A stretch of DNA of 64,000 nt from a virus. Its lineage: Duplodnaviria; Caudoviricetes. Each line of letters begins with the position of its first letter. Position 1 is the stretch's first letter. The translations under genes were made by a program, and so were the position numbers. Shown here one piece after another: positions 18,483 through 63,592 of this stretch. The notes beneath the pieces were generated by a model. That model saw only the letters and a list, made by a program, of their open reading frames with translations, did no database searches and had not been told where the DNA came from. Location of the stretch: positions 1 through 64,000 of IMG/VR virus record IMGVR_UViG_2687453622_000001; one strand, written 5' to 3'.

Positions 18483-18529
18483 ATCGTCCCGATATCATCG
18501 ACGCCGGCATGCATGCGTCCCCGGCGATA

Positions 18530-19765
18530 TCAGAACAGCACCGGGTTCGTCGGCCTCGCCATCCGGCGGGCTATGAGCCGCACGTAATCCGGATCCATCT
18601 CCGCCGCCACGCACCGCACGTCCTCGATCCGGCACGCCTCCAACGTGGCGCCGCTGCCGGCGAACGGCTCCAACACGAGCCCGTCCGGCGGCGTGACCAG
18701 ACGCACCAGCCAGCGCATCAGTTCCACCGGTTTCACCGTCGGATGGCGGATCCCGTCCACGGTCGGCCTCTCCCCCGGTCCCGCCTTCGGACAATACCGG
18801 AACACCGGGTAGAAGCGGGACGCGCCGCCGGCATCATCGTATTCCGCACCCGTATGGGTCATGCCCCAGCCGTCACCGGGTTTCGCGCTCGCGCGTGGCT
18901 TGCCTTTTCGACTGACCGTGACGCCGGACTGCCGGTCGAGTTCCCTGGCCGCGGATCGGTCGAACAGCATGTTCGGCGCGAAACGGGCTTCGGCCGTGTA
19001 GTCGGCGCGATCCGCCTTGTCCGCACCGTATACATGGTTGTCGCGCGGCCCGGAGCCGAACCGTCCATGCCGGTTCTTGCCCTTCGACTCCGCCTCGTCC
19101 GCCATGTTGCGGAACGGGACGCGGCATGCGTCGACATGCAACGCGCCCGTCCCGTATTCGAGCAGATTGCGGGCGAGATTCCCGTCCAGGGGCTTGCGTG
19201 CGAGGCAGATGGGTTCGTGCGCGGGCTTCAGCTGACTGTACCAGCCGGACCATCGCTCCGCCTGTTCGGTGGCGGGCGCGAGCACATCCCATTCGGATTT
19301 CGCCTTCCCGCCGTTCGCCGTGCTGCTTCCCCAGCCTTTCACGTCCGAATATCCGACGCCCGCGGAACCATGCCCGACCACCTTGGTCCGTTCCGCGCCC
19401 AGCTCCCTGTCCACGAGCAGGCTCGCATCCGACCCGTGCGGCATGCCGGACGCGTACACCCAGTCGATCTGGTCGCGGATTTCGAAGCCCGCATCCTCGA
19501 TCGCGCAGGCGAGCCGATGATAGGTGCGGCTCGCGGCGAACGCGGCCACATGCCCTCCCGGCTTCAGAACGCGCAGGACATCCCGCCACAGATCCACGTC
19601 GAACGCGACGCCCGTCGAATCGAACGCACGGTTCATGAAACCGATCTCGTACGGCGGGTCCGTGACCACCGCATCCACACTGTCGTCCGGCAGCATGGCG
19701 ATGAGGTCGCGGCAGTCGCCCGGCATCAGACGGATGCGGCCCCCGTCCCATTGCATAAGACTCAT
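18530..19765 (-). CDS. orphan N6A/N4C DNA methyltransferase (beta class)
   Basis: VTDPPY before HPTVKPVELM and VLEPFAGSG; no cognate nuclease nearby. Confidence 0.9.
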   Translation of the reverse strand: MSLMQWDGGRIRLMPGDCRDLIAMLPDDSVDAVVTDPPYEIGFMNRAFDSTGVAFDVDLWRDVLRVLKPGGHVAAFAASRTYHRLACAIEDAGFEIRDQIDWVYASGMPHGSDASLLVDRELGAERTKVVGHGSAGVGYSDVKGWGSSTANGGKAKSEWDVLAPATEQAERWSGWYSQLKPAHEPICLARKPLDGNLARNLLEYGTGALHVDACRVPFRNMADEAESKGKNRHGRFGSGPRDNHVYGADKADRADYTAEARFAPNMLFDRSAARELDRQSGVTVSRKGKPRASAKPGDGWGMTHTGAEYDDAGGASRFYPVFRYCPKAGPGERPTVDGIRHPTVKPVELMRWLVRLVTPPDGLVLEPFAGSGATLEACRIEDVRCVAAEMDPDYVRLIARRMARPTNPVLF

Positions 19766-20091
19766 GGCTCCACGTATGCGTTCCCGCCATGCAGGCGCGC
19801 GCCGGGCATGAGCGCGCGGGGACGCGCATCCACGTAGGCGAGCCGACGGCTGTCGCCCGGATAGGTGCGCACGTTGCCTCCCCCATCCCGGGTCTCGTAA
19901 TAGACGACCGTCACCGGCATGCCGTTCAGGCTCGCATCATCCCAGCCGACCACCCTGACCGGCATGCCGCCCGGCCCGTAGCCGCCCGACAGGAGAAGCC
20001 TTTCCAACAGCCTCTCCCCCATATCGCGTCTCGAAACAACCATGGGAAACGGTATGCGCCACCCGGCTCCATGCAAATCCGAAGCCCCCAC
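19762..20091 (-). CDS. hypothetical protein
   Basis: ORF overlapping the methyltransferase start; start uncertain. Confidence 0.4.
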   Translation of the reverse strand: MGASDLHGAGWRIPFPMVVSRRDMGERLLERLLLSGGYGPGGMPVRVVGWDDASLNGMPVTVVYYETRDGGGNVRTYPGDSRRLAYVDARPRALMPGARLHGGNAYVEP

Positions 20092-20173
20092 GTTGGCCGG
20101 TCATCCGGCGAAAACGAGCCGCCACGGGGCCGGTCCCGAACCGGACGATCATCCCATCCGGACGATGTACGGC

Positions 20174-20480
20174 TCAGTCGTCGCCTTTGGCCCTGTTGCA
20201 CGCCTTGCACAGCCAACGGCAGTTGTCGGGCACGGTGCGCCCGCCCTTCGACCAGGCGATGACAAGGTCGGCCTCCCCCTCCTCGACATCGGCGAACGCT
20301 TTGCCGCATGCGGGGCAGATGCGGTTCTGCCGTTCGAATGCGGCGCGCCTGTCCGCTTCCCTGAATTTGCGGATGCTCAGGACGCGTTCACCCCCCGGCA
20401 CGTACGAGTAGACGCCCGTCTTGGCGGTCACGTCATCATCGGCCATGAGCGTCGCGATCCGCACCTCCGGATCGGCATAG
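20174..20480 (-). pseudogene. C-terminal HNH endonuclease remnant
   Basis: CPACG..EADLVIAWSKGGRT..NCRWLCKACNRAK; catalytic His replaced; no proper N-terminus. Confidence 0.65.
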
Positions 20481-20538
20481 AACCGGGCGCGTCCGACACG
20501 GGCGCGGAAACACGAAAAATCGAAAGGCAGAGAAACCA

Positions 20539-21009
20539 ATGAGCGACTTCACCGTCAACGTCACGTCCACACCCACGCCGGCATCGACGCCGGCGGCCGA
20601 GCCCGCCCGGCATGCGAGCCTGAACACGCGGCGCGGGCTTGCCAAATACATTCTGCTCGGCCTGATCACGTTCGGCATCTACGACCTGTGGCAGATGAGC
20701 GAGATCACCGATACGGTGAACCTGATCTGCACGAAGCGGGACGGCAAACGCACCATGCACTACCTGCTCATGTTCTTCCTCGTCGGCTGGATCACGTTCG
20801 GCATCGGCTGGCTCGTCTGGGGACACCGGCTGAGCGCCCGCATCGGCGTGGAGCAGGCCGCCCGCCGACTGCCCGTCACCATGACCGCAGGCACGTTCTG
20901 GCTATGGAACATCCTCGGCGCGTTCATCATCATCGGCCCGCTCGTCTACACGTACAAGCTACTGCACGCCATGAACGATCTGTGCGCCGACTACAACCAG
21001 CGCGGCTAG
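20539..21009 (+). CDS. DUF4234-like membrane protein
   Basis: RGLAKYILLGLITFGIY repeated as LVGWITFGIG; three TM segments. Confidence 0.75.
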   Translation: MSDFTVNVTSTPTPASTPAAEPARHASLNTRRGLAKYILLGLITFGIYDLWQMSEITDTVNLICTKRDGKRTMHYLLMFFLVGWITFGIGWLVWGHRLSARIGVEQAARRLPVTMTAGTFWLWNILGAFIIIGPLVYTYKLLHAMNDLCADYNQRG

Positions 21010-21016
21010 ACGGCCG

Positions 21017-21508
21017 TCAATCCTCCCTGCGATCCTCCCGGTATCCATCCGACGCGACATGGTCGAGCACGAAAGCCGCGATCTGGTCGCGCAGCTTCGG
21101 GAAAGTCTCCTTGCCGGTCGTTTGACGCCGGTCCATGATCCATGCGAACACGCAGGTGAGAATAAAGCCGCCCATCAGGCCGTACACGTCGATGTCGGCC
21201 CGCTGGCGGAGAGACAGTGCGATGCCGGCCGCCCACCATCCGATGCACAGCATGATGCCGAGCGCGTGCAGGATGATGGCGAACGGCGTCTTGTCGACTT
21301 CCACGATGTCCAGCCAGCACTGCAATTCAAGGACGATGAGCAGGAACGCGACAAGCCACAACGGCGCCTGAAGGATTCCGACGAGCAGCGGCGTATGGTT
21401 CGCGGCCAGCCACGCGAGTATCGGCCCGCGGTTGAACGCGAACACCAACGCCATGACGAACAGGATGATCGCCGTCCACGCGAGACGGCGCACGGTTTCC
21501 AGGCTCAT
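21017..21508 (-). CDS. membrane protein
   Basis: Four hydrophobic segments; RBS AAGGGGG. Confidence 0.65.
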   Translation of the reverse strand: MSLETVRRLAWTAIILFVMALVFAFNRGPILAWLAANHTPLLVGILQAPLWLVAFLLIVLELQCWLDIVEVDKTPFAIILHALGIMLCIGWWAAGIALSLRQRADIDVYGLMGGFILTCVFAWIMDRRQTTGKETFPKLRDQIAAFVLDHVASDGYREDRRED

Positions 21509-21557
21509 GATTCCCCCTTCTGTCGCCTTTCCTTCTTTTTCCCAAATAACCCGAACA

Positions 21558-21920
21558 TCATCGGTTTCCTTCCTGATTGTCGAAACCGCCTTCCGGCCCG
21601 TAGTCGCTATCATCCAACGTCCATTCGCTTGTCCCGTCCGGCCCGGTCTCGAATGCGATGGTCGTGTTGCAGAACCCGCAGCGTTCCACGGTGATGGAGG
21701 TGCGTCCGTCGGCCGTCAATCCCTGCGCCCACCATGGCTGGAACGGGTGCCCACATCCGGAACACGGTTGCGGATCACGTCGCAAGCCGTTGTTCTCGCA
21801 GGGGAACAGTGCTCGGGCTTCGATGGGTGGACGCCACCCATGCCAGTCGACGGGCCGTCCGTCCCATGCGGGCGGCAGCCGGAAATCGGTCAGGTCGGCC
21901 GGCCATTCCAGAATGTTCAA
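21558..21920 (-). CDS. hypothetical CxxC Zn-ribbon protein
   Basis: CSGCG and CGFC; TTG start overlapping upstream stop. Confidence 0.55.
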   Translation of the reverse strand: MNILEWPADLTDFRLPPAWDGRPVDWHGWRPPIEARALFPCENNGLRRDPQPCSGCGHPFQPWWAQGLTADGRTSITVERCGFCNTTIAFETGPDGTSEWTLDDSDYGPEGGFDNQEGNR

Positions 21921-22453
21921 TGGTCCAGCTCCTTTTCGTATTCGTCGATGATTCGCCGGATATCCTCGCCGGTCCAGAAACCGTAATGGTCGAGCCTTGC
22001 GGCGACCGCCTGAATCAGGGGCTTGTTGTTCCTTGCCGCGAGCCGCGCCCTGACCCACAATGAGTCCATGATCTCGTCGGTGGAGCCCATCGCCGGGTCG
22101 ATACGGTGGATGATCGCCGCGTTCACCAGTTTCGACTGCACGTCGCCGCCGATGCGGAGCGCGTCGGTCCGGTATTCCGGATATTCCAGGGTCACGGCGA
22201 ACCCGGCCATGGAGATGATCGTCTCCGTCTGCAATCGGACGGACATATCATCGTCCATACCGGTGGCATGCTGCTGGCTGGTCTCTCCGGTATCGTCCTC
22301 CCGCAGCATGATTCCTTGTTGCGTGTATCCGAACCGATAGCCGACCACCGCATGCCCGGCCTCGTGCAGGCGGACGCGCATCGGAGGTTCGGGCGGCTTG
22401 GAATGGCGGATTGCCCGGAGTTTCGCGACCCACCAATCGTATGTGTTCATCAT
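21917..22453 (-). CDS. HExxH Zn-metalloprotease-like protein (M41-like fragment)
   Basis: HEAGHAVVG, ISMAG, GGD. Confidence 0.7.
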   Translation of the reverse strand: MMNTYDWWVAKLRAIRHSKPPEPPMRVRLHEAGHAVVGYRFGYTQQGIMLREDDTGETSQQHATGMDDDMSVRLQTETIISMAGFAVTLEYPEYRTDALRIGGDVQSKLVNAAIIHRIDPAMGSTDEIMDSLWVRARLAARNNKPLIQAVAARLDHYGFWTGEDIRRIIDEYEKELDH

Positions 22454-23046
22454 CGCCTGCCTTCCATCATCAAATCCAATATGACGGCCAACGGCACCAC
22501 GTCATGACTGGCGTGCGTCTTGCACACGGGACCGTACCAGCCGGTTTCGGGCATATCCTCACAGTCGGGGCCGTCCGTCCGCATCCAACGGCGGATCGCG
22601 ACCACGGGTTTGCCGCAGGATTCGTAGTCCCCGTCGCGGGATACGCCGGCCGTGCATCCTAGACGCAGCCAGGACGGGTCGTATGCGGCGAAGACGCGCA
22701 TCGGGTCGTATGGCAATACGCCCGATAGCGGTGGCATGAGCGACGGATCATGCTTCCAGCAGCCGGCATCGGCCACGGCCTTCAACACCTCCGACAATGG
22801 GACGACATCATGGTTGGCATGCAGCTTGCACGCGGGTCCGTATACGCCCTCCTCGGGCAGGAGCTCGCAATCGTCGTACCCGTCGTCGCGCGTCCAACGG
22901 CGGATCGCCACAGGCGGTTTGCCGCACATGTCGAAGTTCTCGCCTTTCCAGCAGCCGGCCGCACAGCCGAGCCGCAGGGCCAACGGGTTGCATTGTTCGG
23001 CGATGAGCTTCGGATCATACGGCAATGGCTGTTTGGTTTCACTCAT
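22450..23046 (-). CDS. protein of two tandem Cys/His-rich repeats
   Basis: LPYDP..LRLGC.AG..CGKP.VAIRRW..YGP.CK.HA.HDVVPL occurs twice. Confidence 0.75.
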   Translation of the reverse strand: MSETKQPLPYDPKLIAEQCNPLALRLGCAAGCWKGENFDMCGKPPVAIRRWTRDDGYDDCELLPEEGVYGPACKLHANHDVVPLSEVLKAVADAGCWKHDPSLMPPLSGVLPYDPMRVFAAYDPSWLRLGCTAGVSRDGDYESCGKPVVAIRRWMRTDGPDCEDMPETGWYGPVCKTHASHDVVPLAVILDLMMEGRR

Positions 23047-23085
23047 AGTCTCGGCTCCCCTTTCCGCTGTGATATGCGTTCGCGG

Positions 23086-23157
23086 TTGACTTCCTCCCCC
23101 GACTGAAGTCGGGGGATTCTTCCCCTCGCGGGGAGGAGTTTCCTGTGGGTTTAGACG
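23086..23157 (-). mobile_element. 72-bp non-autonomous IS200/IS605 derivative (PATE-like)
   Basis: Two hairpins, ends GGAGGAAGTCAA like the IS605 right end at 54436; removal restores the upstream ORF. Confidence 0.75.
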
Positions 23158-23348
23158 ATCCACGCTCTTTGGGTGTGAATCATCCAGTCGAACATCGCCG
23201 CAGGCAGGCAGGCCTCCAGGTCGCCCGTGGAATCGATCGCGTCGTCGAGCAGACGATCAGCCTCCCGCTCCCCCATCGGCGCACCGCAACCGGCGGACGG
23301 CCGCAAACGGCCAGGTCGGCATCCGAGAACACGCTCGCGCCGCATCAC
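23151..23348 (-). CDS. small hypothetical protein, 3' end truncated by the 72-bp element
   Basis: Without the insert it ends RAWIRERISQRKGEPRL* overlapping the next ATG. Confidence 0.55.
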   Translation of the reverse strand: MMRRERVLGCRPGRLRPSAGCGAPMGEREADRLLDDAIDSTGDLEACLPAAMFDWMIHTQRAWIV

Positions 23349-23917
23349 GTCCCCCAGCCGACCGGGATGTCCGCGCTTTTCGCCGTCTCCAACAGGAGCC
23401 GGAACAGCTGGATGGCATCTTCCTCGCCTTCCATAGGGTCGAACCGGATGCCGTCATTCCCTGCCATGGCGGTCTCCAACATGAAAGCCACCTGACTGTC
23501 CGCGCCGACGAACGCGAACCCGGAACCGGCTTCCACCCACTCCCGGCGGCCCACGTCCCACCGCAGGTTCAGATACCGGCCGAATCCACGATGCATGTCC
23601 GCGCCGATCCACACGGAACGGCAGCAGTCCAGGAACTCGGATGACGTGATATCCACGCTCAACCCCGATTCGACCGAACCGGACACGAACGGGATGCGAG
23701 CCGCCAGCATGGCGGCCAACGGTCTCAACCACTTCACATCACCGCCGGACGCGATACGCTCCCCATCCACGATGGCCGTGGAATCGTCGGCGCCGGAGGA
23801 AATGTCCCCTTCGCCGGTCATGCGGGACACGCCGTCCGGGTCGAACTCCCAATCATATTCGACCGGATTGTTGCCGGTCTCGTCATTGGTCTCCACGATG
23901 ATGCGTTCAACATTCAT
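23345..23917 (-). CDS. hypothetical protein
   Basis: RBS AGGAGG; overlaps both neighbours. Confidence 0.65.
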   Translation of the reverse strand: MNVERIIVETNDETGNNPVEYDWEFDPDGVSRMTGEGDISSGADDSTAIVDGERIASGGDVKWLRPLAAMLAARIPFVSGSVESGLSVDITSSEFLDCCRSVWIGADMHRGFGRYLNLRWDVGRREWVEAGSGFAFVGADSQVAFMLETAMAGNDGIRFDPMEGEEDAIQLFRLLLETAKSADIPVGWGT

Positions 23918-24510
23918 GATTGCTCCTCCTTGTCCAATACGGTTCTGGATACTTTCAGATATCGTGTGCCGCCCGACTGGCGTAGCTGGCGGTTGTTGAT
24001 GCTGTCGATGACCGGGGCTGGGGGATCCGTATACGATTCATGCGCCCGGACGATCACATGATGATTCGGGTTGAACCCGGAGTACAGGTGCGTGATCGCG
24101 AAGGTCGCCGATAGTACGTCCAGATCCTTGAAATCGTAGATGGTGTCCGTTCGGAACCCGTCGATGCCGGTCGGCGGTTCGACCGGTTCGAGACCATGGA
24201 CGCCGAACATCGCCACCCTGACCCTCATGTCCGGATCATGCTCGAACAGGTGCGCATATTCGTCGCGCAGCACATCATATTCGGCTATCGCCCGTTTCGC
24301 GGTCATCGGCATGCTCTCCGGGTCGGCAAGCATACGTTTCACGAACGCAATGCCCTCGTCGGTGATGATCCGGTCATGCTGCCCGAAATCGACCAAGCCG
24401 CGTTCCTTCAACGCGTCGAAACCATAGGGGCCGGTATACCACGAGTCTTCCTTGAGCCTGTCGACGGCGAAAAACAGCATGGCGTACTGGGCTTTCGTGA
24501 TGCTCTTCAT
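23914..24510 (-). CDS. hypothetical protein
   Basis: ATGA-coupled operon member. Confidence 0.65.
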   Translation of the reverse strand: MKSITKAQYAMLFFAVDRLKEDSWYTGPYGFDALKERGLVDFGQHDRIITDEGIAFVKRMLADPESMPMTAKRAIAEYDVLRDEYAHLFEHDPDMRVRVAMFGVHGLEPVEPPTGIDGFRTDTIYDFKDLDVLSATFAITHLYSGFNPNHHVIVRAHESYTDPPAPVIDSINNRQLRQSGGTRYLKVSRTVLDKEEQS

Positions 24511-25295: not shown

Positions 25296-25415
25296 TCCCT
25301 GCACCATCCTCTCTGTTTCGTCTCCACATACATGGCGTCGCGCACCTCGGTGTCGTTCCAACCCCATTCGCGGGCGAGATGCAGGTAGTGTTCGCCTATC
25401 ACATCGATGTCCTCT

Positions 25416-25685: not shown

Positions 25686-25697
25686 GATGGTTCTTTT

Positions 25698-26656: not shown

Positions 26657-26659
26657 GGT

Positions 26660-27653: not shown

Positions 27654-27731
27654 CACGCATGCGTCCCCATCACAGGCCCTTCGCCTTGAGGATCATGTCC
27701 GCTTCGCCGGTGAAGTCGTGCCGGCGGCGCA
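27654..27731. repeat. about 80-bp direct repeat, copy 1 (copy 2 at 30913-30992)
   Basis: Both copies encode LRRRHDFTGEAD.IL.AKGL* followed by GGGGACGCATGCGTG. Confidence 0.85.
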
Positions 27732-30912: not shown

Positions 30913-30992
30913 CACGCATGCGTCCCCGTTTCACAGGCCCTTCGCTGTGAGGATCGAATCGGCTTCGCCGGTGAAATCGTGTCGGCGGCGCA
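30913..30992. repeat. about 80-bp direct repeat, copy 2
   Basis: See 27654-27731. Confidence 0.85.
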
Positions 30993-31419: not shown

Positions 31420-31456
31420 GCCCTGGGTATGCGTCCCCCTAATCAGGGAAACGGGG

Positions 31457-33099: not shown

Positions 33100-33260
33100 T
33101 TCTCTTCCGCTCCTTTCCGGAAAAAGCATGCGTCCCGAAAACCAGAGGATTGCGAATCAGGCTGCTCGAACCATCATAACGTCGAATGCCTTATTCCGGC
33201 ACGCGCCAGATGACGGCGGCGTGAAGACCGGCTGCCTGGCCGGGTTCCCGTCGAAAGGCA

Positions 33261-47599: not shown

Positions 47600-47939
47600 C
47601 GGGCCTCCGTCCCTTTGCGTGCGTCCGACGGTATGCGTCGCCCGGCGAGACGTCGGGAGTCGCCAGGCCTTCGGCCTGCGCCTGCTCCAACTGGCGGACC
47701 GTGCAGTGCACGCATTCCGGGTGCATGCCCGCCCAGACGCCTACCATGAACGCCATATGCCTGGTCTCGCCGGTCAGGCTTCCTATGAGGGGACGCGCCT
47801 CCCATGAGGGGAGCGGCCGCCAGCCGTCGCGCCAACAGTCCGACTCGAAGCCGATGTCATGGGTCCTGGCGGCCTTCGACGGCCATACGTGGATGAGGTC
47901 GGTCTCGACGTGCAGCGCGTATCTGAAGCGTATCGCCAT
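47571..47939 (-). CDS. hypothetical protein
   Basis: MAIRFRY... coupled to upstream stop. Confidence 0.5.
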   Translation of the reverse strand: MAIRFRYALHVETDLIHVWPSKAARTHDIGFESDCWRDGWRPLPSWEARPLIGSLTGETRHMAFMVGVWAGMHPECVHCTVRQLEQAQAEGLATPDVSPGDAYRRTHAKGRRPDGKNRKNIR

Positions 47940-52896: not shown

Positions 52897-52933
52897 GCCC
52901 CCGGGTATGCGTCCCCATACACGCGGTCCGGGT

Positions 52934-53305
52934 GTATGCATTCCGGTCCGCGTGTATGCATCCGTATGCATCCGGGGATGCATACATCTTTTCTTTCCGT
53001 TTCGGCTTGTTTCCAACGTTCCGGGGATGGCCCGGAGGCGTGTATGCATTGTATGCATCATTCCCTTATAGGGGATTCGGGAAAAAGGAAGGAAACCCCA
53101 TATATTGATGCATACAATGCATACAAGATAAAGGAATTATATTTTTTCCTTTATTTATAAGGGTTTTCGGGCTTTTTCCGGGCTTTTTCTGTATGCATCC
53201 CCGGATGCATACAGATGCATACACGCATACAAAACGGGCCGGAAAACTATACAATATTGTAAAGGTCGGAGGTGAGACTTTACAATATTGTAAAGCCTCA
53301 CCTCC
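52934..53305. repeat. nested inverted-repeat array of GTATGCAT units with AT-rich core (candidate origin or centromere)
   Basis: 11 GTATGCAT/ATGCATAC copies; IR 52951-52986 with 53190-53225; IR 53041-53060 with 53106-53125; TACAATATTGTA palindromes at 53250 and 53281. Confidence 0.85.
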
Positions 53306-54232: not shown

Positions 54233-54483
54233 GCCCCGTGGCATGCGTCCCCGGACGGGCATGGGACGCGTCCGCGGCGAAGCGTCTCACCGGGCGTACG
54301 GGGGGGGATCGCGTGCAGGCCGGCCCCGTCCGCCAGCAGCATGCCCCGGTCGCCGATCGGCGTGCCGTCCGGCATGGTGCTGAACGTGTCGCATAGCCAC
54401 ACGCCCTCCACGTTGCGGACCGACGGGACGGGCGTTTGACATCCTCCCCCGCCTGAAGACGGGGGATTCCTACGCCGGTCAGC

Positions 54484-55770
54484 TTAATGAAGCCTTGCGG
54501 TTCGGCGGGTTCCCGCTTCACGGGCGTCCGCGTTGCGACCGGTTTGCGCCAGTCTCCGTCTTACGTCGCCTCCACGGGCGTTTAGCGACTCCGCGAGTCC
54601 CGCGGCGTCGAGGATGTTCAGTGCGGCGTTCCAATCACGGTCGAGCCGTATGCCGCATTGCGGGCATTCCCATTCGCGTATGTCCAACGGTTTCCGTCCG
54701 TCGCGGCGTCCGCATTGGGAGCAGATTTGGCTGCTGGGATACCAGCGGTCGATGCGTTTGACGGTTCTGCCATATTGGACGCCCAATTGTTGGATGCGGT
54801 CGATGATACGCGTCCAGTTCGCATCCAACAGGCTCTTCGCCATGCAGGTGCGGGCAAGTCCTTTGACGTTCAGGGTCTCCAAGGCGACGGCTTGGTTCTC
54901 GCCCGCCACCTTGGATGCCAGCTTGTACGCCACGTCCCGGCGTTGGTTCCGTATCCGACCGTAGGTCTTGGCCTTCAGAAGTCGTGTCTTCGCATGGTTG
55001 TTCGAGCCTTTCGTTTCCCTTGCCAGTTGTTTGTCGAGTTTGCGCAGTCGGCGCGTCTTGCGGTTCAGGGTGCGCGGGTGGGGTATCTTCTCGCGTGAAC
55101 CGTCCGTGTAGACGATGCTCATGAGCGAGTCAAGCCCCATGTCGATGCCGCACGCCTCATGCAGCGGCTCGGGCGCGTCGGCCTTGTCATCGACTTGCAC
55201 GGTGAAGCTCGCCTCGTAAGAGCCGTCCGCATGCCTCATGATGGTGACGGTGTTCGGCTTGGACGGCAGTTCGCGAGTCCAACGGAGCTTGACCCGCCCG
55301 ATTTTCGGGAGCGTGAGGAACGCCCACTTGCATCCGTCCGCATGCCCGACCTTGAATCGCGCGGACTTGGTGAACTCGGCCGACTGCTCCCCGTCCCTGC
55401 GGCTCTTGTACCGGGGCAGCCCCGTGCGACGCTTCTTCCCGGTACGGCGGTTGGTCACAATATGCGTCCTGCCCGCCTTGTAGAGGCGAAGGAAGTTCCG
55501 GTAGGCCATGTCCGCGTGGCGTATCGACTGCTGTAAAGGCGTGGATGATACGGCCAGAAGCCATTCCATGCCGGGTTCTCGCTTCCATAGGGTGAACATG
55601 TTGCTCAACTGCGTGCAGGACTGCATTCGCCCATGTCGGCGACGCATAAGCTCCCGCTGGTCGAGCGTCCAATTGTACGCGTACCGGCATGCGCCGTACA
55701 GGCATGACAATGCCTCGCGCTGCCCTTGCGTTGGGTAGGCGCGGTAGTTGTATCGCCTGTAGGAACTCAT
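54484..55770 (-). CDS. tnpB: RNA-guided endonuclease TnpB
   Basis: YNYRAYPT, GIDMG, LETL, SSQICSQCG, CPQCG, DRDWNAALNI. Confidence 0.93.
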   Translation of the reverse strand: MSSYRRYNYRAYPTQGQREALSCLYGACRYAYNWTLDQRELMRRRHGRMQSCTQLSNMFTLWKREPGMEWLLAVSSTPLQQSIRHADMAYRNFLRLYKAGRTHIVTNRRTGKKRRTGLPRYKSRRDGEQSAEFTKSARFKVGHADGCKWAFLTLPKIGRVKLRWTRELPSKPNTVTIMRHADGSYEASFTVQVDDKADAPEPLHEACGIDMGLDSLMSIVYTDGSREKIPHPRTLNRKTRRLRKLDKQLARETKGSNNHAKTRLLKAKTYGRIRNQRRDVAYKLASKVAGENQAVALETLNVKGLARTCMAKSLLDANWTRIIDRIQQLGVQYGRTVKRIDRWYPSSQICSQCGRRDGRKPLDIREWECPQCGIRLDRDWNAALNILDAAGLAESLNARGGDVRRRLAQTGRNADAREAGTRRTARLH

Positions 55771-55793
55771 GTTTGGTATTATACTTGGTCTTC

Positions 55794-56210
55794 ATGGATA
55801 AGACAAACGATATTCGTAAGGGACGGCACTGCGTCTACGATTTGCATGCGCACTTGGTCTTCGTCACCAAATACCGGCACGACGTGTTCACCGACGAGCA
55901 CCTGAAGGCGTTGGAACGCATATTCTCCGACGTGTGCGCCTCGTTCGACTGCCGGTTGGAGGAGTTCAACGGCGAAACCGACCACGTGCACCTGCTCGTA
56001 TCGTTTCCCCCGACCGTGGAACTCAGCCGACTCGTCAACAGCCTCAAGGGAGTGTCCAGCCGATACCTGAGACGCGACTACCCCGAACTCGCCCGACACT
56101 ATTGGAGGGCGCAACGCCTCTGGTCGCCCAGCTACTACGCGGGCACGGCGGGCGGTGCGCCGTTGGACACGCTGAAACGGTATATCGAGAACCAGAACAG
56201 ACCAGCGTGA
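55794..56210 (+). CDS. tnpA: Y1 HUH transposase TnpA
   Basis: HLVFVTKYR, DHVHLL, LKGVSSR, LWSPSY, YIENQ. Confidence 0.95.
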   Translation: MDKTNDIRKGRHCVYDLHAHLVFVTKYRHDVFTDEHLKALERIFSDVCASFDCRLEEFNGETDHVHLLVSFPPTVELSRLVNSLKGVSSRYLRRDYPELARHYWRAQRLWSPSYYAGTAGGAPLDTLKRYIENQNRPA

Positions 56211-56841
56211 TTCCCCACCGCCCTAAAAGGACGGTGTACCCTCACGCCAAAACGATGGCCGGACACCTGGGTCAGGCGGCCGTCGTAGTCCCCGTGGCCG
56301 GGACGCGCCCACAACGGTCCGTCGTCGTCCATGTACAGGGCGGCCAGGCTTCCGGGACGGTCCGGCAGACGGTTCAGACGGGCCGCGATCCGGTCGGCGG
56401 TCATGCCCGTCCAGGCGTGCCCGAACCGGCGGATCCCCCACCGGCGGGTGAGTCCCGCGTGCGTGGCGACGATCGTGCCGTCCGTCCATGCGATCCGCAT
56501 CGGGATGTCCTTCATGAGCTCGTGGACGCGGCGCTGCGCGCCCGGTTTGAAGCCCGGCGCCTGGGCGCGTACGCGCGCGAACGAGGCGGATCCGCGTCGC
56601 ATGAAATACGGGACGTCATGGTTGCCGAGCAGCGGGACGATCTCCCGTCGCCCGGATTCGGCCCGGTACCATGAGGCGAACCGTTCCATGAACCGTATCA
56701 TGCCCGTGTTCGACACATGCCAGTCGTCGCATATGTCGCCCAGCAGGACGATCCGGTCGGCATGCTCCCGGTCTGCCATGTTCGAGATGAAAGGCAGCAG
56801 GTCGCCTTTCGCGTGCAGGTCGCCGGCGAACAGGGTGCGGT

Positions 56842-57447: not shown

Positions 57448-57668
57448 CTGGTCTCCTTGCCGCGACGGCGGAGGATGACGCCCGGTTCGACGATGTGGAA
57501 GCCGCCGCATTCCGGGCATTTGCGGATCGTCTTGCCTTCCGGCAGGCGGCCGAGCGCGATCCGGGCGTCCACGGGGGTCGCGTAGCGGGTGCGGGAGCAT
57601 TTGCGGCTGAACATGGCGTCGGCCTTCATCGGGCGGGGCTGGTTTTTCTCAAGGTTCCTGCGTGGCAT
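57444..57668 (-). CDS. small Zn-ribbon protein
   Basis: KCS..Y....A...CPECGGFHI; RBS GAAAGGA. Confidence 0.55.
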   Translation of the reverse strand: MPRRNLEKNQPRPMKADAMFSRKCSRTRYATPVDARIALGRLPEGKTIRKCPECGGFHIVEPGVILRRRGKETR

Positions 57669-57710
57669 GGAATGGTTTTCCTTTCGTTTGCCGGGTTGCT
57701 ATGCGCCTGT

Positions 57711-58217
57711 TCAGACGGCGGCTTCGATGGCGAGGCGCGACAGTTCCGCCGAGTCGAACGCATGTTCGGCGATCCCCTTGCCGAGGGTGACGGTCACGCC
57801 GCCGGACCGGCCCGGCTGGTATTTCACGCCGTCCGGTATCTCTCCCCCGTGTTCGCGGATGAGACGTTCGAGGAAACGTTCGCCCATGGCGTTCGGGGTC
57901 GGGTAGTTGACGGTGATGACGGCCGGCTGCCCCTCGCAGTCCAGTCCATAGTGGCTGAGGAAGTCCGCGTAGGCGAGCGGATCGTCCACCTTGTAGGAGC
58001 CTTCCCCGTCCCTTTTCACGAGCACGGTGGCCGCGTCGAGGCCGGCGAACACCGCGTTCTCCCTCGGACTGTCCGCGTCATGCGTGCGAAGATACTGGCG
58101 TTTCGCCCCGTCCAGCGCCTTCGTGATCTTCTTCTGGAGGATGGCCAGTCCGGCCATGTGGGCGAGCAGCATGTCGGGCGTCATCTCCGACCAGTCGTAT
58201 GGTTCGATGCCTGTCAT
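57711..58217 (-). CDS. hypothetical phage-type protein
   Basis: YKVDDP.A..DFL, GEIPDGV; RBS GAAAGGA. Confidence 0.65.
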   Translation of the reverse strand: MTGIEPYDWSEMTPDMLLAHMAGLAILQKKITKALDGAKRQYLRTHDADSPRENAVFAGLDAATVLVKRDGEGSYKVDDPLAYADFLSHYGLDCEGQPAVITVNYPTPNAMGERFLERLIREHGGEIPDGVKYQPGRSGGVTVTLGKGIAEHAFDSAELSRLAIEAAV

Positions 58218-58269
58218 GGGTTGGTTCCTTTCCGTCCCGCGCACGATGCGCGGGCCTGTGTTCCAGAAC

Positions 58270-58343
58270 CGCGTATGCGTCCCCGTCCGTGACGCATACG
58301 CGCCCGTATGGCCGGAAATCGGTGGAATTCCGGCCATACGGGC
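58270..58343. promoter_or_regulatory. two adjacent stem-loops containing the GGGGACGCATAC motif
   Basis: CGCGTATGCGTC..GACGCATACGCG and GCCCGTATGGCCGGAA..TTCCGGCCATACGGGC. Confidence 0.55.
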
Positions 58344-58476
58344 GATGCTAGGGCTAACGCTGCGGTAAGCCCCGCCACCCGTCAGGATGGCGGGCGGACC
58401 CCGACGAAGCGCGAACCAAGCGGCGGCGGAAACCGCGCAAGACTTGGAGCGGACGGCCGCGGGACCGTCCTGCAAG

Positions 58477-58800
58477 CTAGGGCGAACCAGCCTGCAACGG
58501 CGCTCCCACCGGCCGTCCGCGCCTCTTTCCCGCTTCCCGCGTGTATCGGATGATGGGGGCGGGGGCGAGCAGGCCCGCCGTCAGGACGATGAGCCCGATC
58601 CCGATCCCCATGGGCCGGGGTATGGGCGCGGACGTGAGGAACACGCCCCACATGATCCACCACATGGGCGTGATCGCGAGCATGAGGGTCCTGCATCGTC
58701 TCAGGACGCGCACGTCCGGGTCGGCGCGCCGCATGCGCCGTCGTCGTCGCGTGCCGCCGCTCACCCGCACGGGCCGCACGGTTGTCGTCTCGTCGTCCAT
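58477..58800 (-). CDS. small 2-TM protein
   Basis: Two hydrophobic segments; follows the sortase gene. Confidence 0.55.
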   Translation of the reverse strand: MDDETTTVRPVRVSGGTRRRRRMRRADPDVRVLRRCRTLMLAITPMWWIMWGVFLTSAPIPRPMGIGIGLIVLTAGLLAPAPIIRYTREAGKRRGRPVGAPLQAGSP

Positions 58801-58809
58801 GCGCGCCGC

Positions 58810-59874
58810 CTATGCGCCCGTCATGGACGGGCCGGTGGAGAACAGGGGGATCGTCGCGTCGAGCCAGGGGCTGAGCCACGCCCATTCGGCGAACAGGATC
58901 ATGGTCCAGAACAGGCTGAAGAGGATGATCCGCAATGGGACGGGTCCCGTCTGGATGCGCCAGGCGAGGGTCAGCGGGTTCCATGTGGGTTCGCTCCGGG
59001 GCCTGCCCCCATGCCATATGAGCCATGCGAGGCCGGCGAGCAGGAGCCAGGCGCCGCCCGCGGCGGCGGCGAGGATGCGGCTGACGGGCATGCGCACGCT
59101 TATGCGGCGTATGACGCGGCTGGCCGCCATGCGCGCCCTGACGGCGGGTCTCGAGGTCCCGTCGGCGAGTTCGGCGGGGATCCCGTCCCCCACGTCCGAC
59201 CATGATTCGAGGCGGCCTCGTATGATGAGGCGCGCGGACAGGCTGTCGGCCTCGTCGAGCGACCATTTGCAGGTGGTGAGCGTGATCGAGCGGGTGTCCC
59301 CCTGACCGGGCTGGTCGGCGACGACCGCGACGTCGTCGGGCGTGGTCATCCAGGATGACTGCACCTTGTACACGTACCAGTGCCGGGCGGTCTGGATGAC
59401 GATCGGGTCGCCGGGCTGCAATGTGTCGGCGGCCCCCAGGTCGCCGGGCGTGCGGTGTCCCGCGTACGCGCTGTTGCCTTTCCCGCCGGGCATGGGCGTG
59501 TGCCCGTAGTGGCCTATCCCCTGGTTGGCGAGCACGTCCGTGCCGGTGCCTTCCTGGATGGCGCGTTTCCAGTCGTGGCCGAACCGGGGTATCCACATCC
59601 AGCCGATGACGGCGCCGTGGCCGGGTTCGGTTTCGGCCGGCGGGTCGCCGCCCCGGGGTTCGGCGATCCGGGTCGCGTCGCCCGCATCCACGTCCTTGAC
59701 GCCGTGGCGGACGGCGAGGGTCTGCTGCGTGTGGATGCCGTCGAACGCGTCCCCCCACCATACCCAGCCGACGTGGAACGCGCACAGGATGGCGAGCGTG
59801 AGGCTCAGCCCGGACACGAATTGGAGGATGCGGCGTCCCGTGCGGGCGCGTGGGCGCGTGTGCCGGCCGGTCAA
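58810..59874 (-). CDS. class E sortase with C-terminal TM extension
   Basis: N-terminal TM, IPRFG, AYAGHR, ITLTTC, RLIIRG. Confidence 0.88.
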   Translation of the reverse strand: MTGRHTRPRARTGRRILQFVSGLSLTLAILCAFHVGWVWWGDAFDGIHTQQTLAVRHGVKDVDAGDATRIAEPRGGDPPAETEPGHGAVIGWMWIPRFGHDWKRAIQEGTGTDVLANQGIGHYGHTPMPGGKGNSAYAGHRTPGDLGAADTLQPGDPIVIQTARHWYVYKVQSSWMTTPDDVAVVADQPGQGDTRSITLTTCKWSLDEADSLSARLIIRGRLESWSDVGDGIPAELADGTSRPAVRARMAASRVIRRISVRMPVSRILAAAAGGAWLLLAGLAWLIWHGGRPRSEPTWNPLTLAWRIQTGPVPLRIILFSLFWTMILFAEWAWLSPWLDATIPLFSTGPSMTGA

Positions 59875-60212
59875 CGCTCCCCCTCGTCCCCATGGCGTCC
59901 GAGGGTCTGTGTGACCGCGTCGAGGATGACGAGGTCCGCGTATCCGGGCGCGTCGGGGAAGGGGAACATGGCCTTGTAGGCGAGGTCGGGCCGGGCGACG
60001 AGGTTCCTGGCGGCGAGCCCGTCGAGGACGAGTCTGACGATCTTGCGGAACGCGGGCATCGTGTCCTTGGGGTCGAGGGGGATCATGATCCCGTTCGCCG
60101 CGTCGTATTCGCGTGCCAGCTGTTCGCGCAATCGTAGGATCTGCGGGTCGTGGCTGACGTAGTCCCAGTTCACGGCGTGCGTGTATTTGTCCCTGACCAG
60201 ATCGTCGCCCAT
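59871..60212 (-). CDS. hypothetical protein
   Basis: RBS GGAGG; coupled to sortase. Confidence 0.65.
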   Translation of the reverse strand: MGDDLVRDKYTHAVNWDYVSHDPQILRLREQLAREYDAANGIMIPLDPKDTMPAFRKIVRLVLDGLAARNLVARPDLAYKAMFPFPDAPGYADLVILDAVTQTLGRHGDEGER

Positions 60213-60510
60213 GGGCGGCCTCCCCTTCCCTTGTCCCGTGTCCGGCGCGGCCCGGCGGGCGCGTCGGATGCTTTCGCGTGAGGGTATGCGTTCCGGTGCG
60301 TGGGGTCTGGCCGGGGTGTCGTGTGGCGTTTTTCGACCGGGTTGACGAGGCTGATGTCCCCGCGACGCGGGTGGACGATGATCTTCGTGAACTCGCGTAC
60401 CGACTTCGGCGTGATGCCGGTGAAAATGATGAAGCCCACCTTGGCCGAGGTTTTCGATTAGCCGTGTTCCGGACCGTCCGGTTCTCCCCCGATGCGATTC
60501 GTGCGGCGGT

Positions 60511-61065
60511 TCACTGCTTGTGCGTCTTCCGGCACAGATCGAGCATGGGGCGCAGGTCCGGGCTGCCGCCCTCGCGTTCGATCCGCACCGTATGCGCGGC
60601 CAATGGCAGCAGCCGTTCCAGGTTCGAATCCATGGTCTTACGATTCAGGACACCGTCCCAATCGGCGGTGATGCGGCGGAACGCATTGTGGAATTGCTCC
60701 ACCACGACGAACCTGTCGACATCGGAACCATACACGATCTCCGGTGTTTCCGGCATGCGCCCCGAAGCGAGCTCATAGTCCCCCGCCTGTCCGTCAAGCA
60801 GTCGGGCGAGGACGATGGCGTTGTCTTCGAACCTGTCCGCCGGCAGGCCGAGCGCCCGCATCCCGTTCGCCGCCCACTCATGGTCGACGGAGGGGAGGCG
60901 CCATGGGCAGCCGCCTCCGTTCAGGTGGAGCTCGTACCCGTATACGTCCTTCAGGACCTTCGCGGCGGTCTCCCGAGGATGGTCCTTTTGCATCCGATGC
61001 CATGCGCGTAAGGCTTCGCACAGCATCGCGTAACAGCCGTTCAGCTCCTCGTCACGGACGCCCAT
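60511..61065 (-). CDS. hypothetical protein
   Basis: MGVRDEELNG...; RBS GAGGGG. Confidence 0.65.
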   Translation of the reverse strand: MGVRDEELNGCYAMLCEALRAWHRMQKDHPRETAAKVLKDVYGYELHLNGGGCPWRLPSVDHEWAANGMRALGLPADRFEDNAIVLARLLDGQAGDYELASGRMPETPEIVYGSDVDRFVVVEQFHNAFRRITADWDGVLNRKTMDSNLERLLPLAAHTVRIEREGGSPDLRPMLDLCRKTHKQ

Positions 61066-61492
61066 CGACGGTCCCCCTCCCGTCGGATCCGGCATTCCCG
61101 CCGGCAACCAACCTGATTATCGTATCGGCCGTTTGCGCGGATTCGAGCAGCGTCTCCTCGCAATCCGCGAACTCCTCCAGCCGCTCCCAGAACATGTCCA
61201 GTTCCGGATCCGTGTCGGGTTCCGGATCGTATTCGAGATCGATGTCCTGTTCGTCGGCCGCCCGCCTCTTGCATCCCTCGAACCATTCCGTCTCCGAGGC
61301 CCATAATTCGTAGGCGAGCCGTCGAGCATCCCTGGCCGCCTTCGCGTAGGCGGCCAGGGCCTTCGCCAGTTCGGCGCGCTTGCGCCTGCTTGGCTTGAAC
61401 AGCCGGTCAACCCTGTCCGCGAACCGGCGCCACTTCAGCTGATCCTCGAGGGAACCGTCGTCGGGAATGCCGGTCATGTCGAATACGCTCAC
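61052..61492 (-). CDS. hypothetical acidic protein
   Basis: 146-aa coupled ORF. Confidence 0.6.
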   Translation of the reverse strand: MSVFDMTGIPDDGSLEDQLKWRRFADRVDRLFKPSRRKRAELAKALAAYAKAARDARRLAYELWASETEWFEGCKRRAADEQDIDLEYDPEPDTDPELDMFWERLEEFADCEETLLESAQTADTIIRLVAGGNAGSDGRGTVDGRP

Positions 61493-61755
61493 TTTTCCCC
61501 CGATCGTCCGGCCCCGTCGATGCTCCGTCCGAGACGGCGGATGTCATCCCGGACGTCGGCGGCCGCCAATGAGAACGCGGCGACCGGTCCGCATATCGCG
61601 CAGACCGCGTGCAGGCCGGACGGGAGCCTCGGGACGCCGAAGCCCGGCCGGTCGCAAAGGAACGCCGCCAGCGCCGCGGCCAGGGTGACGGCGAACGCGA
61701 TCGCGCCGACCGTCAGCAGGCGGCCCAATCCGATGAATCGCATCAAACCACGCAT
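61489..61755 (-). CDS. small 2-TM protein
   Basis: Hydrophobic segments; RBS GAGGAGG. Confidence 0.55.
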   Translation of the reverse strand: MRGLMRFIGLGRLLTVGAIAFAVTLAAALAAFLCDRPGFGVPRLPSGLHAVCAICGPVAAFSLAAADVRDDIRRLGRSIDGAGRSGEK

Positions 61756-62054
61756 GAGTTCCTCCTCCCTCTTCCCATACGGGATGGGTGTTCGTATCGG
61801 ATGGGCGCCAGCACGCCGGCCCGCCCCAATGCCTCGCTTAACAGGTCGTATGCGAGGAACCTCTCATATTCGTGGAGGACGCTTGGAGGCTCGTCGTACT
61901 GGACGTGCGAGCATCCGCTCCAGCATCCGTGCAGATGCCAGTCCAACGCGGTGAACCAGCGGCCGCACGAGCATTGGGACTTGAACGGACGCTCCGGATC
62001 CGTGACGCCCGTATCCCGGTGCAGGATGAACGTGGATAGCTCAGTGGACATCAA
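61743..62054 (-). CDS. small Cys-containing protein
   Basis: CSCG..CWSGC; coupled ORF. Confidence 0.5.
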   Translation of the reverse strand: MMSTELSTFILHRDTGVTDPERPFKSQCSCGRWFTALDWHLHGCWSGCSHVQYDEPPSVLHEYERFLAYDLLSEALGRAGVLAPIRYEHPSRMGRGRRNSCVV

Positions 62055-62605
62055 TTCCTCTGTTCCTTCAACGCCTCGCGTACCGTGACCTGCGGTTTCA
62101 GAGCATTGCCCTTCCCTTCGGTGACGGTGACGTGAGGCCGGTCCAGGATGATCTGGCCGTAGACGACGTGACCATCCTTGATATAGCGGACGTCGATGGT
62201 CTGTCTATCGGATACGGATGGCCATCCACGAGAATCCGGCAACGGTTCATCGCAGGAACGGGAACCGAAGAAAGTGTCGCACTCCCCCAACCCCTGTATC
62301 CCGTACACGCGCTCCACCGTCGCGTCGAAACCGGGAGCCTGCGAAACCCCGTCCATGGACGGGAGCCAAGACAACATCAGGAACAGGCATTGGGCCACTA
62401 TCATGCAGATGATGCCGGATAATACCGGTGTGGTCCCGGTGTACGAACGATCCGGCTTCGCCCCTCCCGTGAACCACGGAACCACGACCAGAACGGCGCC
62501 TGTCAGGGCGATTCCGATTATCAGTATGCTCGCCCAGAGAGGGAGCGACTGTCCCGACATCTCTTCCGCATCAATCCAAACAGTGAAATCAGTCATTCGC
62601 CTCAT
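62051..62605 (-). CDS. membrane protein (2 TM)
   Basis: Two N-terminal TM helices. Confidence 0.6.
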   Translation of the reverse strand: MRRMTDFTVWIDAEEMSGQSLPLWASILIIGIALTGAVLVVVPWFTGGAKPDRSYTGTTPVLSGIICMIVAQCLFLMLSWLPSMDGVSQAPGFDATVERVYGIQGLGECDTFFGSRSCDEPLPDSRGWPSVSDRQTIDVRYIKDGHVVYGQIILDRPHVTVTEGKGNALKPQVTVREALKEQRN

Positions 62606-62877
62606 CCCCCGTCATCGATGCGCCTGCCGGTTCCTCGCCATGCGCAGCTCACCTCCATCCAGACGAGCCCATGCTCGTCCACGATCGTCCTGAACTCGTC
62701 CACCCGCCACCGGAACGCGGCTGAATCGACCTTGAACGTCTCGCGACCGCCGTCACGCAATGGTTCGAACAGTCGGTCGGCTTCGGCGCGCGTGGCGAAG
62801 CCGACCGGCCATGGAATCCACCGGCCGGGATAATCGGCTAGCCGGCGGGCCAGTTCCTCGTATCGCCTATCGTCCAT
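62602..62877 (-). CDS. hypothetical protein
   Basis: MDDRRYEELARRL..PGRW. Confidence 0.55.
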   Translation of the reverse strand: MDDRRYEELARRLADYPGRWIPWPVGFATRAEADRLFEPLRDGGRETFKVDSAAFRWRVDEFRTIVDEHGLVWMEVSCAWRGTGRRIDDGG

Positions 62878-63187
62878 CGGTCTTCTTCTTGTCATTTGGC
62901 TTGTAGTCGCGGACGATGAGGATCATCCAGCCGAAGCACGGGAGCATCCGGTATTCGCCGTACCGGGTCAGGGCGGCCGCCAGGCGTTCCGCGCCGGGGC
63001 GGGTGGTCCATTCCTTTGAGTCCTCGTCGTAGTCCTCGGCGATCCAACCCTTCTTCAGCAGCCCGTAATGCGCCTTCTTCCACGCCCGGCTGACGATCGC
63101 GGCGAACAGGCTGCCGGCCAGCCAGAGCAATAGGATTCCCAATACGATCATGAACGGGGTGGCCACGCCCAGCCAGTAGCCGGACAT
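62867..63187 (-). CDS. membrane protein
   Basis: MSGYWLGVATPF hydrophobic N-terminus. Confidence 0.55.
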   Translation of the reverse strand: MSGYWLGVATPFMIVLGILLLWLAGSLFAAIVSRAWKKAHYGLLKKGWIAEDYDEDSKEWTTRPGAERLAAALTRYGEYRMLPCFGWMILIVRDYKPNDKKKTDGR

Positions 63188-63480
63188 CAGACGCGCCCCA
63201 GCCGGTGCAGGGCCTCGGCGGCGTGGATGCGCGCCTGTTCGCCGCCCGCTCCCCCACTGGCGTTCATAGCCGTCTCGTTTTCGGCCGGCGTGGCGAACGT
63301 CGCGGGCTCGTCCCGGCATACCAGGCGGGCGAACGCCCTCGCCTCCCCGTCCGACAGCACGACCCGGCCCTCCGACCCCTCGCGCATGCCGGCGACCGTC
63401 CACAGGCCGGACTTCGGATCGCGCCACGCGCGCCCCCATTCGCCGAGGAAATGATATCCCTCCGGAACATGCAGACCCAT
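63187..63480 (-). CDS. hypothetical protein
   Basis: RBS AAGGAGG; preceded by a GACGCATAC motif. Confidence 0.6.
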   Translation of the reverse strand: MGLHVPEGYHFLGEWGRAWRDPKSGLWTVAGMREGSEGRVVLSDGEARAFARLVCRDEPATFATPAENETAMNASGGAGGEQARIHAAEALHRLGRV

Positions 63481-63592
63481 GCGGACCCCTCCTTATTCGA
63501 AACGACGATTCCCGGTCGGCGAAGGGTATGCGTCACGTCGGCTCCGACCGTCTCCGTGGCGCGGCCGTGCGGATCGGGACGATCCCACGCGG

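Follow-up and report, generated by a model that had tools for sequence, protein, structure and literature searches.

The DNA analysed here (the window) comprises positions 1 to 64,000 of the virus record IMGVR_UViG_2687453622_000001 and is the first 64 kb of a contig of 186,745 nt with a G+C content of 64.9%. Its subject is a 12-bp word, GGGGACGCATRC, referred to below as the box, which recurs ahead of gene starts over most of the contig. The contig is filed as a 'provirus' that is 97% complete by CheckV. No phage structural genes were found in its annotation, and a megablast comparison with phages gave no match. Families assigned with Pfam and PHROGs include a set of conjugation type, namely FtsK/SpoIIIE, an AAA_10 ATPase, CHAP and NlpC/P60 hydrolases, sortases and SpaA pilins, together with many DNA methyltransferases, an MmeI-type enzyme, toxin-antitoxin pairs, SecE, SecG and a Prim-Pol protein. 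At least seven TnpB genes were recognised with Pfam, and ARAGORN places an array of 19 tRNA genes at 66310–70387 on the minus strand. Megablast matched six Bifidobacterium megaplasmid records, including pMP7017 of B. breve, in modules only and at 86–96% identity. The Prim-Pol replication protein has no counterpart in those six records. Because the matches are confined to modules and Prim-Pol lacks a counterpart, the contig is, as judged from these comparisons, a mosaic relative of the pMP7017 megaplasmid family with a higher G+C content than pMP7017 itself (57.4%). The element is megaplasmid-like, belongs to the pMP7017 family and extends over at least 170 kb. No member of the lineage that carries the box was found in PLSDB or in the phage collections.

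Seven exact copies of the box lie in the window, compared with 0.12 expected, and none of 100 shuffled sequences reached that number. The whole contig contains 18, against a mean of 0.4 and a maximum of two in 40 third-order Markov simulations; the reversed word does not occur. An earlier reading of the window from its letters alone (the original prediction) had proposed that the word is a -10-like element or operator read by an element-encoded sigma factor or activator. The seven copies it listed are all present, and each reads GYATGCGTCCCC on the plus strand. Its claim of sense orientation extends to the entire contig, where 18 of 18 exact copies point toward the downstream gene. The extent it gave, 18.5 to 63.5 kb, was too narrow: the word continues to the end of the contig and does not define a 45-kb island. 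Among the variants, those at 19774, 33126, 60284 and 63526 were recovered as described; the site at 23072 is weaker, with the core ACGCATAT, and the one at 47631, also recovered, is doubtful because it lies inside a called coding sequence (CDS). The opposite-strand copy of ACGCATAC ahead of the integrase gene was located at 16869–16876, 40 nt before the ATG at 16917. When up to two mismatches are allowed, the window holds 36 sites against 19.3 ± 4.3. This excess is modest, so that it is the exact copies and the positions that carry the signal. The 8-bp core ACGCATRC occurs 77 times in the contig, and ACGCATAC occurs 50 times, whereas 300 shuffled 8-mers gave a mean of 4.1 and a maximum of 30. 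By crude gene calls on a contig that is 86% coding, 13 of the 18 exact copies lie wholly outside CDSs, two partly and three wholly inside. Of these three, 54241 is covered by a doubtful 60-aa open reading frame (ORF), 102764 by a gene whose start is called too early and 92174 by a fused ORF. A logo of 29 sites shows no shared -35 element, as had been noted from the sequence, and the bases upstream of the box are not conserved. An RNA hairpin or a palindromic operator was also considered and rejected: inverted partners occur at few of the copies, and the copies do not agree in their potential for G/C pairing.

The position of the box relative to start codons is strongly constrained. For 29 of the 77 cores, an ORF of at least 60 aa begins with ATG or GTG 6–9 nt downstream, where about five would be expected by chance. 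The background frequency is 6.4–7.3% per position, the antisense reading gave 3 of 77 and the reversed word 0 of 5. The spacing is 8 nt at 19 of these sites, 7 nt at five, 6 nt at four and 9 nt at one. The start codon is ATG at 28 of the 29, the single GTG being at 96621, and in 24 the frame has a coding-like G+C content at third codon positions. In the window, the short spacings that had been claimed hold: the ATGs at 19765, 31419, 52896 and 54232 follow their boxes after 8, 7, 8 and 8 nt, respectively. The boxes at longer distances are followed by leaders of 26–71 nt that carry a Shine-Dalgarno (SD)-like run, also as described. The short-spaced genes have no SD sequence at a usable distance, and their spacer is G-rich and mostly ends with C before the ATG. 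Among the sequences that follow the 18 exact boxes, 14 have a pyrimidine at position 8 and 16 have a purine at position 9; transcription usually starts at such a pyrimidine-purine step. Of 100 putative operon heads, 32 have the core upstream, compared with 11 of 91 internal genes. At the -10 position the hexamer reads CATAC(C/G): the A at position 2 is kept, position 6 is C or G at most sites and the final T is absent.

This geometry resembles that of actinobacterial leaderless promoters, in which a -10 hexamer recognised by the housekeeping sigma factor lies some 7 nt upstream of the transcription start, which coincides with the A of the start codon. The position of the hexamer, the G+C-rich spacer, the pyrimidine-purine step and the missing SD sequence are common to both. 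The present sites differ in that the hexamer has neither the first nor the last T, the seven bases upstream of it, GGGGACG, are as conserved as the hexamer itself, and the word is apparently private to the element. Matches of sigma-70 type are not more frequent than in shuffled sequence over about 40 kb of the element (4 against 6.3 ± 2.4 and 3 against 3.8 ± 2.2).

The tight linkage to ATG at 28 of 29 fixed-spacing sites raises the question whether the box acts in RNA rather than in DNA, as a processing or translation signal within polycistronic transcripts at which an endonuclease or a ribosome-associated factor makes or uses a 5' end at the AUG. Its single orientation and its location between co-directional genes fit such a role. 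The start-associated sequences (SAS) of cluster K mycobacteriophages share this genomic pattern: the SAS word is 13 bp long, asymmetric, placed a few bases before the ATG in one orientation, and reported as absent from host genomes (PMC3203893). SAS elements, however, are described as containing an SD core 3–7 bp from the start (PMC3203893), whereas the box contains none, and the G-run that follows it is too near the ATG to act as one. Boxes also precede RNA genes. One lies 19 nt before tRNA-Arg and another 66 nt before tRNA-Trp, at the head of the 19-tRNA array, which argues for a signal in transcription rather than translation. At five of the 29 sites the ATG is non-coding, including the two tRNA-preceding boxes at 69881 and 70454 and the box at 131314, where the ATG at +7 is non-coding and the true gene starts 49 nt further, behind an SD sequence. 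The 'CATG' found at this spacing is thus part of the signal itself and more than a start codon. Finally, two divergent pairs of boxes, 131297/131314 and 178242/178262, lie in gaps of 39–44 nt with little else between the genes than the two back-to-back boxes. Genes arranged in this way have no common transcript, and their promoters are therefore those boxes or lie inside the neighbouring gene. Taken with the tRNA genes and the non-coding ATGs, this makes an RNA-level signal improbable.

A comparison with pMP7017 provides positions at which the promoter reading can be examined. Among the literature found, the only box known in print for this family is a different one, a 34-bp motif of pMP7017 with 19 sites that overlap a TATACT -10 hexamer. 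Transcription of 56 genes is predicted to be driven by it, and it is reported as absent from bifidobacterial chromosomes; it was taken as a transcription-factor site defining a 'pMP7017-specific regulon' (Dineen, Bottacini, O'Connell-Motherway, van Sinderen 2024, PMC10832533). The same report mapped pMP7017 boxes as active promoters by RNA sequencing (PMC10832533). The 12-mer and its core were found in no Bifidobacterium paper; the full-text matches listed for the core and for pieces of the word were primers and unrelated sequences. The two words do not share a plasmid. In pMP7017 we count 21 copies of the 34-mer at up to six mismatches and no copy of the 12-mer, and the present contig holds no 34-mer at up to ten mismatches. 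The 12-mer is absent from three sister plasmids (pMP7017 and two of B. longum; 552,764 nt in total). Sixteen of 28 pMP7017 boxes have, within 2 kb downstream, a gene with an orthologue in the contig. For ten of these 16, a sense core lies within 400 nt upstream of the orthologue, at eight distinct sites where about 1.3 would be expected; of the other six, four lack a sense core within 1.5 kb, and for the remaining two the nearest lies 825 and 1284 nt away. The equivalent operons include those of WhiB, of a nucleotidyltransferase and of the head of a roughly 19-kb operon that runs from an RNA ligase to MmeI, and the tRNA array is headed by a box in both plasmids. Equivalence in position with boxes that have been mapped as active promoters supports the promoter reading, and it is the strongest indirect evidence that the 12-mer is a promoter.

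The two boxes are alike in organisation. They belong to one plasmid family with shared modules at 86–96% identity, and each is a word private, or in the case of the 12-mer apparently private, to its plasmid and repeated some 20–30 times, sense-oriented, upstream of gene starts throughout the plasmid. Their sole likeness in sequence is YATAC at the -10 position, TATACT in pMP7017 and CATAC(C/G) here. In the pMP7017 box, a canonical -10 (TATACT) is joined to a palindromic part downstream, and the genes it serves are SD-led, whereas the present box has neither a canonical -10 nor a conserved downstream part and stands 7–8 nt from many start codons. Homology of the 12-mer and the 34-mer beyond YATAC was considered and found unconvincing, with only 6–8 of 12 matches in either orientation.

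Based on these observations, we consider it probable that GGGGACGCATRC is a private, non-canonical core promoter from which transcription is initiated about 8 nt downstream, and that many of the resulting mRNAs are leaderless. The occurrence of the box, its orientation, its spacing, its equivalence in position with the pMP7017 boxes and the lack of a recognisable sigma factor are observed; that transcription starts at the box, and what reads it, we infer. The box would span roughly -20 to -9, followed by a G-rich spacer of 7–8 nt and a start at the pyrimidine-purine step. At some 20–24 genes the start would coincide with the A of the start codon and produce a leaderless mRNA; other genes would receive a leader of 25–70 nt with an SD sequence, and at two places the transcript would be a precursor of the tRNA array. 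The 12-mer would then do in this element what the 34-bp promoter box does in pMP7017. Because there is no -35 element and the hexamer lacks the canonical final T, the host RNA polymerase probably needs an element-specific helper, for which the WhiB1-like protein described below is one candidate. Leaderless starts account for about 15% of the mapped start sites in B. pseudolongum, according to the published start-site data (PMC4782308).

A search for the reader of the box returned few candidates. No element-encoded sigma factor was found among the 198 predicted proteins of the contig with Pfam or among 118 proteins compared with PHROGs, and a six-frame search of the contig with models for sigma-70 region 2, region 4 and extracytoplasmic-function sigma factors gave no hit at E values up to 10. 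One six-frame match to Sigma70_r4_2 was rejected, as it is the helix-turn-helix of an IS21 transposase. No predicted protein has a convincing catalytic D-x-D-G-D context of an RNA polymerase. The earlier proposal is supported as regards a sense-oriented, element-wide signal at the place of a -10, with a fixed distance of 7–8 nt to SD-less starts and with tRNA genes downstream; its sigma-factor reader is not supported. Plasmid-borne sigma-factor regulons, of which SigN of Bacillus subtilis pBS32 is reportedly an example, are similar in having a plasmid-wide private promoter set and differ in that no sigma factor is recognisable in the present element. The only recognisable transcription proteins within the element are an XRE-type protein (144555–145103), which has no relative among solved structures, and the WhiB protein; most element proteins have no assigned family. 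The WhiB protein is closest to WhiB1 among solved structures (E 4e-21) and is 35% identical to that of pMP7017. Proteins of this type bind region 4 of the housekeeping sigma factor. The WhiB1-like protein is a candidate partner of the box; it could replace the -35 contacts, while the reading of a -10 without the final T would stay unexplained by it. A similarity look-up of the conserved protein upstream of WhiB gave no lead (best score 0.88, 89 shared features).

The main rival to a promoter is an asymmetric operator or 'stoperator' of L5 type. Here, a monomeric repressor made by the element would recognise the site in one orientation, block initiation as well as elongation and silence the element. 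In cluster A mycobacteriophages such as L5 and TipsytheTRex, these sites are asymmetric words of 12–13 bp, present in more than 20 copies at promoters and in short gaps, and oriented (PMC9283540). The box shares the traits that define L5 sites in that account: it is 12 bp long, asymmetric, repeated many times, located in short intergenic spaces, often directly after a stop codon, and aligned with the direction of transcription in all 18 exact copies. A second feature of the element also resembles a protein-binding platform. A 330-bp cassette occurs six times, in the window at 52974–53202 and elsewhere in the contig at 70534, 113603, 118270, 142253 and 175187. Each copy has an AT-rich centre and about 12 palindromic words of GTATGCATAC type, one base off the box core, and a box-type site lies 58–240 nt from one flank. 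The cassettes look like a binding platform for the factor that reads the box or for a related one. In genome contigs, a 19-nt word of the cassette gave only two chance hits, in an acidobacterial and an archaeal metagenome-assembled genome. Against the operator, a fixed spacing of 7–8 nt to SD-less starts and a pyrimidine-purine step are unexpected for a block to elongation and, like the boxes ahead of tRNA genes, unlike what is seen at L5-type sites; the divergent pairs leave no space for another promoter. Moreover, no two-domain helix-turn-helix repressor of cluster A type was recognised among the 198 proteins searched with Pfam and the 118 searched with PHROGs, most of which have no family, and the single XRE-type protein is the only one of its kind. 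We therefore regard the operator as unlikely to be the whole explanation. The two functions may coexist if a repressor site overlaps the -10, an arrangement that has been proposed for the pMP7017 box (Dineen et al., PMC10832533).

The cassettes also bear on a further account, in which the box has no regulatory role and is a by-product of biased composition, or of a small mobile repeat related to the cassette or to the many IS200/IS605-TnpB elements, of which it would be the scar or the end. At the ends of the cassette stands GGGGATGCATAC, which differs from the box by one base; TnpB genes are plentiful in the element, and the core 8-mer is only about 1.6-fold enriched over a third-order Markov expectation (77 against 46.9 ± 7.6). 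Around most copies, however, conservation is limited to the 12-mer and nothing past it is kept, and a scar explains neither the positional and strand statistics nor the equivalence with the pMP7017 boxes. We find this account hardly credible.

Relatives of the element keep the box. A 43-kb IMG/VR record (G001) is 80–97% identical to the window between 16.6 and 58.5 kb and contains five exact copies, all forward; the box is kept where the flanks differ at 52905, at 31427 (where the upstream flank has changed) and at 30916. At seven metagenome loci the arrangement GTGACGCATAC-N8-ATG is kept before the Prim-Pol gene, and small changes are seen in the bases that border the box. The organisms sequenced in read runs X1 and X14 share 58–81% of the words of a 9.5-kb stretch (contig 62001–71500). 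In a pattern scan of viral contigs we obtained 42 single hits, among which G001 is the only relative, and four other long records with one copy each. A search with the Prim-Pol protein in viral and genome contig collections found no relative. One metagenome relative of the Prim-Pol region (locus L063) lies on a contig of 1.58 Mb, which suggests that some members of the element family are integrated in a chromosome rather than being free plasmids.

RNA reads from a relative (run X24) were mapped on 52–72 kb at a depth of about 5–15, with most reads 90–95% alike. Their strand agrees with the orientation of the genes, and the onset of Prim-Pol expression falls in the same bin as the box of that gene. 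Reads also pile over the cassette, summed over its copies. The only strong accumulation of 5' ends, at 53024 on the minus strand (38 of 107 molecules), falls in the cassette beside a segment that varies between copies; it was rejected as a start site and taken as an alignment break summed over the cassette copies. Because the depth is low and the reads are diverged, this run gives no verdict on start sites in either direction. In the same run, a 35-nt piece at the tnpB-distal end of an 1819-bp TnpB insertion sequence (window 54436–56254) attracts hundreds of loose-ended reads, which fits an abundant RNA of omega type from the end of a paralogous insertion sequence. The insertion sequence itself is missing from all four mapped read runs (joint 2435 to 4255 on L060).

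Several observations weigh against a promoter that is read in the way we propose. Housekeeping sigma factors need the final T of the hexamer, which the box does not have, and no alternative factor was recognised in the element by the searches described above. Run X24 lists no pile of 5' ends at any predicted start, which at the depth and divergence given above speaks neither for nor against the reading. In six of the 24 leaderless candidates, an in-frame start led by an SD sequence lies further downstream. Several boxes stand 0–5 nt after the upstream stop codon in co-directional runs, as would be expected of an operator that blocks elongation. The gene set was produced by a crude in-house caller (210 genes), so that the starts have no independent annotation. 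Conservation of the box says little, since the relatives are close (80–100% identity).

A bolder reading joins the box, the cassettes and the missing sigma factor. The element would have its own transcription code without a recognisable sigma factor or polymerase: an element-encoded specificity factor, as yet unrecognised, would recruit the host RNA polymerase, possibly together with the WhiB1-like protein on sigma region 4; the cassettes would serve as platforms for loading or titrating this factor; and sister lineages would have swapped the whole code at the same operon heads. We put this forward as a tentative possibility that is considerably less probable than the private promoter itself. 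If such a swap has taken place, box and reader would co-evolve, and there might be a transcriptional incompatibility or immunity barrier between related plasmids.

For the private promoter, the implications are more immediate. Two unrelated private promoter words at the heads of the same operons would mean that the family swaps its promoter code between lineages, and a 12-mer without the features that the housekeeping sigma factor needs implies a reader that has yet to be recognised. The box together with the cassette gives a concrete handle for finding that regulator, and the box marks transcription units across about 170 kb of largely unannotatable genes. For Bifidobacterium genetics, a 12-bp box that gives leaderless expression would also be a small and possibly orthogonal promoter. 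Infant gut samples commonly contain Bifidobacterium megaplasmids, about whose expression very little is known; homologues have been reported in about 10% of microbiome samples (PMC10832533).

The sites and associated features of the window are collected in Table 1.

Table 1. Boxes, variants and associated features in the window (positions are those of the window).
Feature	Position	Strand	Remarks
Box variant CGATACGCATAC	16865..16876	+	40 nt before integrase ATG 16917, with SD-like GGAAGG; leftmost core of the contig
Exact box	18511..18522	-	46 nt before ATG 18464 (113-aa ORF); conserved in G001
Variant GGGAACGCATAC	19774..19785	-	8 nt before ATG 19765 of a 411-aa DNA methyltransferase ORF; leaderless candidate
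Degenerate variant GGTGGCGCATAC	20052..20063	-	G001 reads GGTGACGCATAC at the equivalent place
Weak variant, core ACGCATAT	23072..23083	-	25 nt before ATG 23046
Exact box	27657..27668	-	Directly after upstream TGA; 30-nt leader with SD to ATG 27626
Exact box	30916..30927	-	After upstream stop; 40-nt leader with SD to ATG 30875
Exact box	31427..31438	-	7 nt before ATG 31419 (162-aa ORF); leaderless candidate
Variant CGGGACGCATGC	33126..33137	-	26 nt before ATG 33099; heads a pair of a small gene and HipA
Exact box	52905..52916	-	8 nt before ATG 52896; heads a long minus-strand run to about 33.3 kb; 58 nt from a 330-bp cassette
Cassette core	52974..53202		One of six copies of the 330-bp cassette in the contig
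Exact box	54241..54252	-	8 nt before ATG 54232 (109-aa ORF); leaderless candidate
Exact box	58273..58284	-	55-nt leader with SD to ATG 58217; strong hairpin upstream
Inverted partner CGTGACGCATAC	58288..58299	+	Back to back with the box at 58273; faces an ORF that looks non-coding
Variant CGGAACGCATAC	60284..60295	-	71 nt before ATG 60212
Variant CGTGACGCATAC	63526..63537	-	45 nt before ATG 63480, with AAGGAGG SD; pMP7017 orthologue lies downstream of a 34-bp box
WhiB1-like transcription factor gene	63593..63880	-	Closes an operon that has an exact box at its head (contig 64764, just outside the window); candidate partner of the box

None of the 77 cores lies to the left of position 16355, so the first 16.35 kb of the window may lie outside the element or form a separate island. 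This segment contains two IS21 istA/istB pairs, a ThsB-like TIR protein, a sortase, two integrase genes and a restriction module composed of DUF4391, a helicase and a methylase, and its G+C content drops to 51–53% at 6–12 kb. A second flavour of the box, GGGGGCGCATAG, stands 9 nt ahead of an ATG at contig 94435 and 139275, on the plus strand in both cases. The fused ORF around the exact box at 92174 is one 568-aa frame (contig 91393–93099, minus strand) with a PD-(D/E)XK domain in its first half; the box is followed by an SD sequence and then by an in-frame ATG at 92130. The halves of this frame form two separate genes in pMP7017, with a box-like site between them, and an internal promoter or start at 92174 is possible.

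Apart from the 19-tRNA array, a lone tRNA-Met gene is found at contig 110304 on the plus strand. ARAGORN detects no transfer-messenger RNA (tmRNA) gene in the contig or in pMP7017, for which a tmRNA has been reported (PMC10832533). On the minus strand, contig 122197–126552 encodes four tandem paralogues of about 330–340 aa with no known family, distantly similar to the region of the 'colicin transporter' gene of pMP7017. A 1063-aa ORF at contig 168198–171389 (plus strand) has a LAGLIDADG, intein-like insert within an FtsK/terminase-like ATPase.

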